A stretch of DNA of 10,882 bases from a virus (lineage: Duplodnaviria > Heunggongvirae > Uroviricota > Caudoviricetes). Position numbers and translations under genes: made by a program. Within the stretch, counting starts at the first letter, position 1. Each line of letters begins with the position of its first letter. Shown piece after piece: positions 6,868-10,882 of the stretch. Location of the stretch: the IMG/VR virus record IMGVR_UViG_2681813320_000023; one strand, 5' to 3'. The notes beneath the pieces are model-generated. The model was given only the letters and a program-made list of their open reading frames with translations. It was not told where the DNA came from and made no database searches.

Positions 6868-6902
6868 TTATGATTTTTTAAGTCAAAGAGGAATTTCTTA
6901 CT

Positions 6903-7109
6903 ATGGCTGAAGAGAAAAAAGGCGGTGTTTCGGTGTACATAAGCCCCGACATCGTGAAGGCGCTCAAGGAACGCCACCAGCAGAACGTAAAAGCAGGCAT
7001 TGCGGCAGGACTTGATCCGCTGGCGATGGTTGAGCCGTCAACAGGCTGGCAGGTACGCGCCTATTTACGCGCGGCGCTGGGTATGAATCAGGTTCACGGG
7101 GGTGAATAA
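6903..7109 (+). CDS. Hypothetical protein (68 aa), first gene of the head module, translationally coupled to the capsid gene
   Basis: ATG 6903 with AAGAGGA upstream. Stop TAA 7107-7109 overlaps the capsid ATG 7109 (TAATG). No recognisable family; position suggests a capsid-assembly accessory. Confidence 0.5.
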   Translation: MAEEKKGGVSVYISPDIVKALKERHQQNVKAGIAAGLDPLAMVEPSTGWQVRAYLRAALGMNQVHGGE

Positions 7110-8164
7110 TGACAGTAAAAGCAATAGCACTTAACACTAACCAGCTTTTTGCGTACCTGAATCGCGAGGATATTGCGGAATTTAAATTCAGTCCGCTGTT
7201 TACCGCGCTGTTTTTCCCGAACGTGGCGACATTCAACACACAGGACATCATGTTAGATAACCTGGATATTGAAGAAGTCACTATGTCGGCGTTTTGTTCG
7301 CCTATGGTGGGTAGCCAGGTTCAGCGCGATAAAGGGTACGAAACAAGCATTATTCGCCCTGGCTACATGAAGCCAAAACACGAAATCGATCCATTAAAAA
7401 CAATAATGCGCATGGCTGGAGAAGATCCAGCACAGCTTAACGACCCTACCTACCGCCGTATGCGCCTGATTACTGGCAACATGCGCCGCCAGATAAACGC
7501 CATTAAAGCGCGCGTGGAATGGCTGGCGGTGAATGCGATAACGACCGGAAAAAACATCATTGAGGGCGAAGGCATAGAACGCTATGAAATCGACTGGAAG
7601 ATCCCAAGTAAAAATATCGCCAGACAGGGACATGGCAAAAAGTGGTCAGAGGCAGATAAGGAAACACACGATCCAATCTATGACATCGAGCTTTATGCTG
7701 ATCAGGCTGGTTGCCCCGCAAACGTCATGATTATGGGCGCTGAGGTATGGCGAACGTTACGCAGCTTTAAAAAATTCCGTGAGCTGTACGATCTTTCCCG
7801 TGGTTCAGAGTCCGCCGCAGAGCTGGCCTGTAAAAACCTGGGCGAAGTGGTGAGCTTTAAAGGCTATCTGGGCGATATTGCCCTTATCGTCTATTCCGGC
7901 AAATACGCCGACAGCGACGGCACAGAAAAATATTTCCTTGAGCCTGATTTGCTTGTCCTGGGCAACACCAACAATAAAGGGCTGGTGGCCTATGGTGCGA
8001 TTATGGATCAGGACGCAGTAAGAACGGGGGCAACGCAAAACATGTACTACCCGAAAAACTGGATTGAGGACGGAGATCCGGCGATTGAGTACGTGCAGAC
8101 GCACAGCGCACCGCAGCCGGTTCCGGCAGATATTCGCAAATTTGTTACTGTCAAAATTGATTAA
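7109..8164 (+). CDS. Major capsid protein, phage lambda gpE-like (351 aa)
   Basis: Colinear similarity to lambda gpE along the whole length, from memory: EFKFSPLFTALFF vs KFKFDPLFLRLFF; PGYMKPKHEIDP vs PGYVKPKHEVNP; EDPAQLNDPTYRRMRLI vs EDPQNLADPAYRRRRII; GDIALIVYSGKY vs GDVAIVVYSGQY; YYPKNWIEDGDPAIEY vs RYPKNWVTTGDPAREF. RBS GGGGGTG upstream, stop TAA 8162-8164. Confidence 0.85.
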   Translation: MTVKAIALNTNQLFAYLNREDIAEFKFSPLFTALFFPNVATFNTQDIMLDNLDIEEVTMSAFCSPMVGSQVQRDKGYETSIIRPGYMKPKHEIDPLKTIMRMAGEDPAQLNDPTYRRMRLITGNMRRQINAIKARVEWLAVNAITTGKNIIEGEGIERYEIDWKIPSKNIARQGHGKKWSEADKETHDPIYDIELYADQAGCPANVMIMGAEVWRTLRSFKKFRELYDLSRGSESAAELACKNLGEVVSFKGYLGDIALIVYSGKYADSDGTEKYFLEPDLLVLGNTNNKGLVAYGAIMDQDAVRTGATQNMYYPKNWIEDGDPAIEYVQTHSAPQPVPADIRKFVTVKID

Positions 8165-8175
8165 CGGGGGATTCT

Positions 8176-8511
8176 ATGGACACTCCATACATTGAGTTAT
8201 TTGCAGGCAGTCAGCAGGTCGCCACGACGCTGGTACATTTTGCCGCTGATGCTGGCGTTATCCAGGAATTTACCCCGCTGATGCTGGCGGACAATGGCGA
8301 GTTTAAGCCGTGGGATGGTCAGGAATCTGGCAAGGCTGTTTATCTGACTTCGTACCCCGTGGACACGTCAAAGCAGAAATCAGCACAGTGTTACAAGACG
8401 GGGATATTTAATATCGCCGCCGTAAACTGGCCTGAGAGCGCCGACACTGACGCGAAAAAATGCGCCGCCTTTGCGGGTTCTGGCGTATCCGTTCAGCCGC
8501 TGGCGCGATAA
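8176..8511 (+). CDS. Head decoration protein, phage lambda gpD-like (111 aa)
   Basis: C-terminal half matches lambda gpD from memory: TPLMLADNGEFKPWDG vs TPLMLDTSSRKLVAWDG; YKTGIFNIAAVNWPESADTDAKKCAAFAGSGVSVQ vs [46 protein letters not shown] upstream of ATG 8176. Confidence 0.8.
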   Translation: MDTPYIELFAGSQQVATTLVHFAADAGVIQEFTPLMLADNGEFKPWDGQESGKAVYLTSYPVDTSKQKSAQCYKTGIFNIAAVNWPESADTDAKKCAAFAGSGVSVQPLAR

Positions 8512-8523
8512 GCAGGGGAAACG

Positions 8524-8937
8524 ATGGCAACGAATGAAAGCATCATGGCGCTACCGCTGGCGAGTAAATTTAAAGCAGAAGCGCGGGCAATGGCTGACAG
8601 AGGTTTATCAACCTACGAGGCCGTATATCAACTCAACAAACTGGAAGAACAGGACAAGCCGCGCGCTGATGCGATTATGGCGCTTCATGAACATAACGAC
8701 TATCAGCCGCTGTTACGTGCAATGGCAAACGTGCCATGTATTAGCGTCGATAATGCTCGTGAAATCCTGAACATGACCATAGAGCAGGAGCGCCCAAAGG
8801 TTGCACCAGAGCTTACCGCAGCCTTTGAAAACTTTATGGACATGCACAGCCCGCAAGCCGTATCAGCTGGCATGGCGTACGATGGCAGAAACCAGGGCGA
8901 TGACGGCGACATCGATCGCATGCTGAAAACCATCTGA
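8524..8937 (+). CDS. Hypothetical acidic protein (137 aa), last gene of the head module
   Basis: RBS AGGGG 5 nt upstream of ATG 8524. Stop TGA 8935-8937 followed directly by a terminator and the cos site. No recognisable family. Confidence 0.55.
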   Translation: MATNESIMALPLASKFKAEARAMADRGLSTYEAVYQLNKLEEQDKPRADAIMALHEHNDYQPLLRAMANVPCISVDNAREILNMTIEQERPKVAPELTAAFENFMDMHSPQAVSAGMAYDGRNQGDDGDIDRMLKTI

Positions 8938-8943
8938 GACAAG

Positions 8944-8967
8944 GCCGGAGAAATCCGGCTTTTTTTT
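8944..8967 (+). terminator. Rho-independent terminator (GCCGGA-GAAA-TCCGGC + T8), near-identical to the hairpin at 6670-6691
   Basis: Perfect 6-bp stem with GAAA loop and eight T, 7 bp after the stop of ORF 8524..8937. Confidence 0.6.
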
Positions 8968-9060
8968 ACGGGTCCTTTCCGGCATATGGACCCGTTACGG
9001 GGCGGCGACCTCGCGGTTTTTCGCTATTTATGAGCCTTTTCAGGGGGGTGGTGGTGGTTT
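8968..9060 (+). other. Lambda-type cos site: cosQ-like and right-end-like sequence (8968-8999), cosN 12-nt cohesive-end sequence GGGCGGCGACCT (9000-9011), followed by a diverged cosB-like region
   Basis: ACGGGTCCTTTCCGG...GTTACG | GGGCGGCGACCTCGCGG(T)TTTTCGCTATTTATGA matches the remembered lambda genome ends almost base for base. Sequence from about 9035 to the TerS start differs from lambda cosB. Confidence 0.75.
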
Positions 9061-9144
9061 TGTTGTTTGCTCTATCTTTATGAATGAAAAGGGAAAGATG
9101 CAAACAATACACCAACCTGAAGCAGTAATTAAGTTGGTGTATTA

Positions 9145-9687
9145 ATGAAATCGCACCTGATGAACAAAAAAAACATGGCGAAAAGCTGCCGTGTAAGTGC
9201 GACAGCGTTCGACAAGTGGGGAGTGACTCCCGTTGAACGTAAAGGCCGTGAGGCGTTTTACGATGTTGCCAGCGTGATAGACAATAGGGTTAACAATGCA
9301 ATTAGCCAGCTTACAAACGACAAAGGCGATATTGATGATGATGAACTCTTACGAGTCAGGATCAGATTACTGACAGCACAGGCGGAGGCGCAGGAACTTA
9401 AAAACGAGCGCGATCGCGGTGACGTGATCGATACTGAGTTTTGCCTGTACGCGCTTTCAAAGCTGGCGAGTCAGATTTCATCAATCATGGACAGCCTCCC
9501 GCTTACTATGCAAAGGAGCTTCCCACAGATTACCCCCGCCATGCTGGATAGGCTTAAAAGGGAAGTGGTTAAAGCCTGTAATGCCAGTGCCAGAGTTGCC
9601 GACAACCTCCCACAGATACTGGCTGATTACTTGAAAGAAACAACCGGAAACGTACCGGAAAAGTTGCAGCCGAATAAAGATAAGTAA
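9145..9687 (+). CDS. Terminase small subunit, lambda Nu1-like (180 aa as tracked; possibly 175 aa from the MNKK start at 9160)
   Basis: C-terminal half aligns strongly to lambda Nu1 from memory: RIRLLTAQAEAQELKNERDRGDVIDTEFCLYALSKLASQISSIMDSLPLTMQRSFPQI vs RLTRAQADAQELKNARDSAEVVETAFCTFVLSRIAGEIASILDGLPLSVQRRFPEL. N-terminus MNKKNMAK... is more weakly similar to Nu1 MEVNKKQLAD.... Located about 135-150 bp downstream of cosN, as in lambda. Confidence 0.8.
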   Translation: MKSHLMNKKNMAKSCRVSATAFDKWGVTPVERKGREAFYDVASVIDNRVNNAISQLTNDKGDIDDDELLRVRIRLLTAQAEAQELKNERDRGDVIDTEFCLYALSKLASQISSIMDSLPLTMQRSFPQITPAMLDRLKREVVKACNASARVADNLPQILADYLKETTGNVPEKLQPNKDK

Positions 9688-9698
9688 CGTAGTACGCT

Positions 9699-9980
9699 AT
9701 GACTGAATCCGAAATACTGCGATTAATCCGCCGCGTCTCTGGAATCAGCCAGCAGGCTGACGAACAGACCACGCAGCCGGACAGCGTGACAGCCGAAAAC
9801 TATGCGCGTGTTGTTGCTGAGGTGATGCGCCGTGATGGTATAGAACTTAATGGCGTGGATATGCGCAACATACGAACCAGAGTTCTTGAGTTGCTGGCCT
9901 ACCGTCGCCGCGTGGAGATGTATCGGGAGAAGGAGAAAATAACGTACCACTGGAAGAAGCCGGAGCGGTTGCGGCGGTAA
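9699..9980 (+). CDS. Hypothetical protein (93 aa) downstream of the TerS-like gene
   Basis: ORF begins 12 bp after the TerS stop, with no strong RBS. Arg-rich, helix-like sequence. No recognisable family. Confidence 0.4.
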   Translation: MTESEILRLIRRVSGISQQADEQTTQPDSVTAENYARVVAEVMRRDGIELNGVDMRNIRTRVLELLAYRRRVEMYREKEKITYHWKKPERLRR

Positions 9981-10275
9981 CTGGTTGATATTCCCGACGG
10001 ACCAAAAATGGGTGGCTACATCCCTCGCTTCTGAGGACTGTTAACAAGCTGCCTGAAAGACAGTCACAAACTACGAAATTTTCGCAGTTTAATTAATGAT
10101 CAGCTTAATCGCTAACCCGCTGATATTTTCGGAAACCTCAATTTGAGGAAGTCGGCGCGGTAACTCGCTGAACTTTAAGCAAAGCGCAAAATTGCGCTTG
10201 CTGAATAATCATTATGATTACGCAGATGATTAAGGAATGACCGAAGGCGGAAATTCGCCTGTGGTTAATGGGGGA

Positions 10276-10538
10276 GTTGCAGATCTGCAACTCGACCATG
10301 AAACTACGGAAACTACCCGTAGTTTGGGTAGTAAGAGTAACACCCAGATTTTGGGTCTTACTCGTGATACCCAAATTTGGGGTATCAGTGGCAACCATAA
10401 CGACTTTCGTTACGGTTGATGCTTTTACCCCATTGGGGGAAAGGTATTACGATAATCATAACACCTACCGAACAGGTAAAGCCCACCAGCCTGATTAACG
10501 TTTAACCGGAAAAAAATTCCGGTAGGTGGGGATCCCCA
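10276..10538. repeat. Cluster of distinct palindromes and hairpins in non-coding DNA
   Basis: GTTGCAGATCTGCAAC (10276-10291, perfect 16 bp); CTACCC-7 nt-GGGTAG (10313-10331); nested hairpin AGTAAGA..ACCCA-gattt-TGGGT..TCTTACT (10330-10362); GATACCCAAATTTGGGGTATC (10366-10386); AACCATAACG-actttcgt/CGTTACGGTT (10393-10417); CCCCATTGGGG (10428-10438); ACCGGAA-aaaaa-TTCCGGT (10505-10523); TGGGGATCCCCA (10527-10538). Confidence 0.4.
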
Positions 10539-10649
10539 TATCGACATTAACGCCCCTCATGAATTGGTGCGCTTCCCCCTGGAAAGATGATCCGCCTGTA
10601 TATTTCTTGTGTCTATTTGTTCCACGTTGTTTCATACAGTGCACCGAAC

Positions 10650-10671
10650 GGTGTAGTCACTGGTGTAGTCA
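10650..10671. repeat. Tandem direct repeat GGTGTAGTCA x2 (period 12) near the right junction
   Basis: ggtgtagtca-ct-ggtgtagtca followed by TTTTG. Its position about 75 bp inside the presumed junction makes integrase or excisionase arm-type sites plausible. Confidence 0.3.
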
Positions 10672-10717
10672 TTTTGCGATTTTTGGCACTTTTTGTGGTG
10701 AAAATTATTTAATTAAA

Positions 10718-10882
10718 TCAACGTGTTATGTGAAATAAGTTATATATAACAGCAATAAATAATGCGAGAATAAACGGCACGATGATCTCGGCGGCAAAAC
10801 GGATACCGCAGAGAATAATGACCAGCATTCCCAACATAATGACGATTTTTAGGCCATTGAGCGTGATGATCGGCTTTGCCAT
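10718..10882 (-). pseudogene. tqsA: 5' fragment of a host AI-2E-family transporter gene (TqsA-like N-terminus), in-frame fusion ending in island-derived sequence (54 codons, start codon at window end)
   Basis: Minus-strand translation from the ATG at 10882-10880: [45 protein letters not shown], then IYNLFHITR and stop (TGA 10720-10718). The first ~45 residues match the remembered N-terminus of E. coli TqsA/YdgG; similarity is lost abruptly, as expected at an insertion junction. Not searched. Confidence 0.4.

Follow-up and report, generated by a model that had tools for sequence, protein, structure and literature searches.

The stretch of DNA analysed here, 10,882 nucleotides long and hereafter 'the window', ends in what looks like the beginning of a host gene, tqsA (formerly ydgG), which encodes an AI-2 exporter. 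Such an arrangement raises the questions of whether the element has integrated into a protein-coding gene rather than beside a tRNA gene, by what means it selected that site, and what becomes of a gene occupied in this way. We consider it very probable that window 1–10745 is a Gram-negative phage-inducible chromosomal island (PICI) that integrated site-specifically at a 9-bp core in tqsA, splitting and inactivating the gene, and that its excision would restore it.

At the right end of the window, the list of open reading frames (ORFs) contains a minus-strand ORF of 54 codons (10718–10882), the ATG of which is at the final base. Residues 1–46 of its product are all identical (46/46) to those of TqsA of Escherichia coli K-12 MG1655 (b1601, 344 codons), and the underlying host DNA is free of mismatches (Table 1). 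After residue 46, K-12 TqsA continues with LNPLVQ and the window ORF with YNLFHITR followed by a stop; among these eight island-derived codons, N48 agrees with TqsA by coincidence. An earlier note on this sequence had proposed a match of about 45 residues to TqsA, followed by nine unrelated codons and a junction near 10745. Comparison with K-12, the check that it had proposed, bears out the match, gives the codon counts to within one codon, and places the junction at 10745/10746. To the left of 10746, the match to K-12 tqsA stops except for GTTA at 10739–10742. Chance does not explain the match, as 5,423 of 5,426 complete E. coli genomes contain this 5' tqsA DNA and the 5' fragment in relatives bears the RefSeq label 'pheromone autoinducer 2 transporter, incomplete, missing C-terminus'. 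The native tqsA start codon is retained in the fragment, and the host promoter side falls beyond the window.

The 54-residue ORF is a fragment of tqsA with an incomplete AI-2E domain. Pfam AI-2E_transport (PF01594) covers residues 14–328 of the 344-residue TqsA, the structure of which has been solved (7NB6), and the full-length K-12 protein matches it at 8.6e-80; the cut at residues 46/47 therefore falls inside this domain. The window ORF, which stops at codon 54, has no Pfam match.

Table 1. Features of the window and attachment-site sequences; a slash marks the island boundary.
Feature	Position	Strand	Sequence or basis
Tyrosine integrase, P4/CP4-like (Arm-DNA-bind_3 + Phage_integrase), tqsA-specific variant	1–1218	+	Pfam, structure match
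AlpA-family small DNA-binding protein, PICI hallmark, likely excision or induction regulator	1593–1781	+	PF05930, 5e-18
DUF4222 protein, 99 aa	3749–4048	+	Pfam; directly upstream of primase
D5/P4-alpha-like primase-helicase, island replication module	4030–5862	+	Profile match
PerC-family transcriptional activator	6391–6663	+	Profile match
Lambda gpE-like major capsid homologue	7109–8164	+	Profile match
Lambda gpD-like head decoration homologue	8176–8511	+	Profile match
Nu1-like small terminase homologue	9145–9687	+	Profile match
Non-coding right arm: P arm of attP and further sequence	9981–10745	+	ARAGORN, Rfam, phage collection search
Tandem arm-type repeats GGTGTAGTCA-ct-GGTGTAGTCA, ~75–95 bp from core	10650–10671	+	Same pair on other arm in relatives
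Truncated tqsA 5' fragment: 46 native codons, 8 island-derived codons and stop	10718–10882	-	ORF list, translation, K-12 comparison, pseudogene annotation in relatives
Extended imperfect core GTTA-TAT-ATAACAGCA	10739–10754	+	attB/attL = GTTA-AGA-ATAACAGCA, 13/16 match
attR copy of 9-bp core ATAACAGCA, identity block of attB and attP, crossover inside	10746–10754	+	Junction alignment, tandem-island attP, secondary site
Host tqsA DNA	10746–10882	-	DNA alignment, 137/137 identical to K-12 MG1655 b1601
attB (K-12)			...GGGTTAAGAATAACAGCAATAAATAATGCG...
attL (relatives)			...GGGTTAAGAATAACAGCA/TTTTATCATTTAGTG...; boundary reads GGGTTAAGAATAACAGCA/TTTTATC
attR (window)	10733 onward		...AATAAGTTATATATAACAGCA/ATAAATAATGCG...

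The window begins at the integrase start codon, and the left junction was therefore read in relatives. In O26:H11 11368, LZHX12, and O157:H7 PV15-279, the gene left of int is a 906-nt tqsA pseudogene ('missing N-terminus'), beyond which lie pntB and pntA, and the opposite island end is followed by the 5' tqsA fragment, ydgV, mdtJ, and mdtI, which is the usual K-12 neighbourhood of tqsA. Four complete genomes have the 3' part of tqsA (~300 codons), and next to it pntB–pntA, directly left of int. The exact 405-residue integrase of the window is present in 486 blocks of the sequence collection; contigs encoding it have an AI-2E remnant, pntB, and pntA on the left in four of the six listed places and in 18 similar places, the remnant being gene-called as 291 residues starting at M54. 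From these contigs and the relatives, we infer that the 3' part of tqsA is also left of this genome's own island, which is where the earlier note had expected the remainder of the gene.

The sole duplication is the 9-bp ATAACAGCA in tqsA codons 44–47. This direct repeat, for which the earlier note had suggested looking, stands at both junctions, with the left copy read in relatives, and an imperfect 16-mer, GTTA-nnn-ATAACAGCA, encloses the 9-bp identity block. The reciprocal site can be read directly. A metagenomic scaffold (TEEM22-1_SAMN25043316 scaffold_9; L013:3741-3830) carries two tandem islands at one site, and the sequence at their joint, ...AAGTTATATATAACAGCATTTTATCATTTAGTG..., is identical to the attP deduced from attL and attR. 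In the LZHX12 locus (L004), the attL layout puts the left core ~190 bp upstream of int; applied to the window, this gives an island length of about 10.9 kb. The arm repeats in the right arm (GGTGTAGTCAnnGGTGTAGTCA, 10650–10671) are two exact copies, against 0.38 matches expected by chance; matching repeats occur on the other arm in relatives (outside the window), ~130 bp from the core and just upstream of int, and the repeats are conserved, with variants, in sister islands. Arm-type sites are arranged in this way in lambda- and P4-like attP, and the repeats are putative integrase sites.

Additionally, the absence of tRNA-like sequence from 9981–10745, as claimed from the letters alone, is upheld by ARAGORN, with not one tRNA or tmRNA predicted across the whole window, and by Rfam, no family of which is found in 9900–10882 even at E ≤ 1. 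The right arm (765 bp) matched nothing in the phage collection when searched in distant mode, no cos site was placed in it by homology, and promoter and terminator scans of it gave no excess over shuffled sequence. It includes a palindrome (10265–10302; perfect spacing, 19-nt arms, 84% complementary) and, after it, short motifs that recur, GAAACTACGG / AAACTACCCGTAGTTTGGGTAG and ACCCAGATTTTGGGT / ACCCAAATTTGGGGT (10265–10400, plus strand), all of which may serve packaging (cos) or regulation.

These data show that the island integrated by conservative site-specific recombination of its attP with the ATAACAGCA core of tqsA, which split the gene. Its 5' part, comprising the promoter and codons 1–46, remains at the right junction and continues into eight island codons and a stop, yielding the 54-residue ORF, and codons 47–344 are stranded promoterless beyond the integrase. 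With an attP that brings no substitute gene end, tqsA would be off while the island is resident, and excision would restore it exactly.

Population counts were made over 5,426 complete E. coli genomes. A continuous span across attB is present in 5,169 of them, the attL junction in 247, and attR with the island end as in the window in 233. The site is interrupted in 254 genomes, in none of which a second copy spans it; an intact tqsA elsewhere, named beforehand as the result that would speak against an insertion here, thus does not accompany the split gene in these genomes. This int–att module accounts for nearly every one of the 254 interrupted loci. Hosts with an island at the tqsA site include serotypes O157:H7, O55:H7, O26, and O103 and strains PCN033 and LZHX12, and the tqsA-site integrases are mutually 97–99% identical. 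When the PV15-279 island (14,878 bp core to core) is removed in silico, the result is the empty site of O157:H7 F6294, with 0/3159 mismatches on the left and 2/3141 on the right, so that the comparison with island-free strains that the earlier note had advised also favours insertion. Rejoining the halves gives an intact 344-codon tqsA ORF in LZHX12, O26 11368, and O157 PV15-279.

EHEC genomes often show large inversions between prophages, and the islands of this family share long homologous stretches, with one segment inverted between relatives; the junction might accordingly be suspected of being a non-specific rearrangement, a product of homologous recombination, or an assembly artefact. The junctions are, however, base-exact in 233–247 complete genomes and in many independent assemblies, and with them come the repeated core, the arm sites, an empty site that matches, and an attP that was read directly. 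These data refute such an origin, to which we assign a negligible probability.

A split gene need not be a silent one. Many integrative elements in coding genes bring a replacement gene end, and a 61-residue island ORF (WP_001332680.1) points outward to attL in a frame that matches the tqsA remnant. Were the island to supply a 5' end or promoter at attL, or were attP to carry a duplicate that leaves tqsA intact, the gene would not truly be inactivated; we judge this very unlikely. The duplication is only 9 bp long, and the 61-residue ORF terminates in frame 5 nt short of the junction and carries the same annotation at the unrelated eprI site described below; it is therefore wholly island sequence and not a fusion partner of tqsA, and was rejected as a source of a new 5' end. 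None of the 16 island ORFs scanned encodes an AI-2E transporter, and the 254 interrupted genomes offer no intact copy. The 3' part lacks promoter and start codon as well as residues 1–46, which hold both N-terminal hydrophobic segments (11–27 and 33–47, read from sequence), and its first in-frame methionine is M54; RefSeq flags both halves as pseudogenes in relatives. Inactivation of tqsA by the resident island, as judged from sequence, is the reading that we retain, and the open 291-residue frame from M54 may have some residual expression. A tqsA mutant reportedly accumulates intracellular AI-2 and forms more biofilm (Herzberg et al. 2006, J Bacteriol), and, by analogy, this phenotype would be expected of an island-split tqsA.

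How the site is chosen is best approached through the integrase, which matches PF13356 (1.4e-18) and PF00589 (2.8e-16) and, with its N-terminal domain, the CP4-like integrase structure 3JTZ. The motifs ARTVE, HDIRRT, GH, and VY are readable in the sequence, with the catalytic R..HxxR..H..Y residues assigned by eye; together with the presence and absence of the island across the population, they suggest that this copy is active. Its target is within tqsA rather than at a tRNA or tmRNA 3' end. The earlier note, starting from the premise that P4-family integrases usually use tRNA or tmRNA genes, had called such a target for this element and treated it as exceptional. The target itself stands but the exception does not, as a non-tRNA target is the rule for this integrase family. 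One sister island, in strain 95-3192 (L006:2998-4212), lies between roxA (ycfD) and phoQ and has an integrase ~90% identical to that of the window; another lies between cspD/yljB and clpS and has an integrase ~74% identical. With these two sites, and with the six attB sites that the PICI literature counts in E. coli, a protein-coding target is unsurprising for the family.

At the phoQ site, the core (GGACATATTT) is just past the phoQ stop codon, and the arm repeats (GGTGTAGTTA) differ slightly from those of the tqsA-site island (GTTA versus GTCA). The window and phoQ-site integrases differ at 36 of 405 residues; 21 of the differences fall in residues 1–100 (the arm-binding domain), nine in 101–200, and only one beyond residue 300, a pattern that would be expected of a recent change of DNA specificity. 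A search of contigs from other genera for the integrase found only one locus, in Shigella flexneri, and the integrase there is 98% identical to the phoQ-site integrase, not to the tqsA-site one.

An identical copy of the window integrase occurs, in a single case, at a secondary site. This copy, in E. coli strain 2313 (NZ_AP027159.1, ~3,880,660–3,895,400; L014 / L016), belongs to a capsid-forming PICI in an ETT2 type III secretion needle gene (eprI-like), which is cut at about codon 12. The attB of eprI is GGATATCAGCAATCAAT, compared with GAATAACAGCAATAAAT in tqsA, with one base differing within the 9-mer; attL reads ...GGATATCAGCA/TTTTATC and attR ...ATATAACAGCA/ATCAATTTG. This look-alike core and the phoQ-site sister integrase argue that sequence, not the function of the target, drives site choice.

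The gene content supports assignment of window 1–10745 to the Gram-negative PICIs (phage satellites), with helper dependence presumed by analogy: int, alpA, and the primase gene are in the conserved order, the size is in the ~10–15 kb range, and the island has no tail or lysis genes. Portal, large terminase, and full protease genes are likewise absent from the island; a 137-residue protein (8524–8937, plus strand) is weakly similar to a head maturation protease family. Rfam places a C4 antisense RNA and its a1/b1 target element in 3003–3052 and 3120–3207 (plus strand), with scores of 72.6 and 46.8 bits, respectively; beside Icd-like ORFs, the two form a predicted P1/P7-type immunity module. 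The window has an unbroken 377-codon ORF at 1839–2972, and relatives have a truncated pseudogene and short Icd-like genes. The DUF4222 protein matches RgdR (ECs1581), which is encoded on O-island 51 and activates LEE type III secretion, in size and position, and on these grounds is probably a member of the RgdR family; its residues 20–22 are PGA, not the RGD motif reported to be functionally important, and, like the ED1a orthologue, it may be an inactive variant.

The Nu1-like segment (window 8969–9688) is inverted in strain LZHX12 (L004:13532-14250). Two relatives (L006 and L007) have an inverted repeat of ~65–77 bp on both sides of the Nu1-like gene; the window has only the upstream copy, and 11 bp downstream of the gene compared with ~256 bp in relatives. 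An inverted repeat pair flanking the window's gene was thus rejected as the cause of the LZHX12 inversion, the downstream copy being missing here.

EcCICFT073 and EcCIED1a (Fillol-Salom et al. 2018, via bioRxiv 10.1101/2022.09.08.507074; PMC10111431), both classical Gram-negative PICIs, share this organization. As these sources portray them, they are ~11 kb long, lack tail and lysis genes, and share with the window the order int-alpA-(icd/c4)-DUF4222-primase-ssb-perC-gpE-like capsid-gpD-like-Nu1-like; EcCICFT073, by the same account, sits at ycfD(roxA)–phoQ, unlike the tqsA island. The ED1a element is likened to the window island by map position and description, as a relative of O-island 51 in ED1a was mapped in 2011 between ydgD and ydgG (tqsA) (Flockhart et al. 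2012; PMC3378721). O-island 51/CP-933C/Sp7 itself is the cf-PICI EcCIEDL933 of O157:H7 (PMC3378721; Alqurainy et al., bioRxiv 10.1101/2022.09.08.507074). It has an int-alpA-rep module of the same family as the window but lies between ycfD(roxA) and phoQ without splitting a gene, whereas the window island splits tqsA, and its cargo is a full HK97 head module, whereas the window carries a lambda-like set of capsid, decoration, and Nu1 genes. Two islands at the tqsA site, those of O26:H11 11368 and O157:H7 PV15-279, likewise have HK97-type capsid-forming cargo, and their right ends are 99% identical to window 9699–10882. Indeed, the tqsA-site int–att module carries at least three cargoes, namely primase-type, RepA-helicase-type, and HK97-type capsid-forming PICIs.

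Insertion of integrative elements at tqsA is already published. The gene is listed among those disrupted by prophage integration (Bobay et al. 2013; PMC3603311) and is one of 19 new regulated-gene-integrity candidates in the TIGER survey (Mageeney et al. 2020; PMC7192596), the supplement of which names Eco33.11.tqsA, Eco557.15.tqsA, and Eco282.16.tqsA, with the UPF0118 domain disrupted. According to their catalogue entries, these elements share species, target gene, and outcome with the island described here (UPF0118/AI-2E disrupted without restoration), and their sizes match as well (11 kb for the window type, 15–16 kb for the capsid-forming type); nothing in the entries sets them substantively apart from this island. 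A full-text literature search joining tqsA with PICI found nothing. Relative to what those entries and lists record, new here are the base-level core, the arm sites, the eprI secondary site, the phoQ-sister comparison, and the genome counts. The review of regulated gene integrity in the TIGER paper (PMC7192596) covers the Listeria comK prophage, the Bacillus sigK skin element, and the E. coli mlrA Stx phages, all of which, like the tqsA island, split a gene, bring no replacement end, and leave the gene restored on excision. By that account, they are established cases, whereas the tqsA element is a satellite that normally excises with helper-phage lysis, and a phenotype, programmed excision, or benefit in its case would be hypothetical.

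The insertion may be asked, then, to be more than an accident of targeting: as an instance of regulated gene integrity, it would be a selected, reversible switch of AI-2 export that alters biofilm or quorum behaviour to the benefit of host or island. Several observations have the form that this concept calls for. Islands that differ in lineage and cargo have repeatedly integrated at exactly this position, their integrases form a tight clade, uninterrupted alleles are present, and the target domain is disrupted without attP-borne restoration. Moreover, in three genomes the halves of tqsA have not decayed further and rejoin exactly, and the gene is among the published candidates. On short timescales, however, a 1-kb remnant free of decay says little. 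The site is intact in ~95% of genomes, the look-alike core in eprI serves the identical integrase as well, and the 90%-identical sister integrase inserts immediately after the phoQ stop codon. Furthermore, PICIs are established to excise on helper-phage induction, by which time the cell is close to lysis and would rarely gain from a restored tqsA. We therefore think it unlikely that the insertion is such a switch, and slightly less likely still that the tqsA-specific integrase was selected to knock out AI-2 export, making tqsA a satellite-controlled quorum switch instead of a neutral landing site. Disruption of tqsA as collateral of site choice, rather than as a selected trait, fits these observations better.

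For work on tyrosine integrases, the tqsA-site and phoQ-site enzymes are a natural specificity-switch pair, and the base-level att anatomy, together with a 90%-identical sister integrase that has a different core, makes them a convenient case for studying how target specificity changes. For E. coli biology, ~4.6% of complete genomes have their AI-2 exporter gene split by a satellite, a natural tqsA knockout to be considered when quorum-sensing or biofilm phenotypes are compared between strains. If knockout of export were selected after all, satellite carriage would reprogramme host quorum signalling and biofilm formation and could raise cell density or encounters with helper phages, and excision would restore export.
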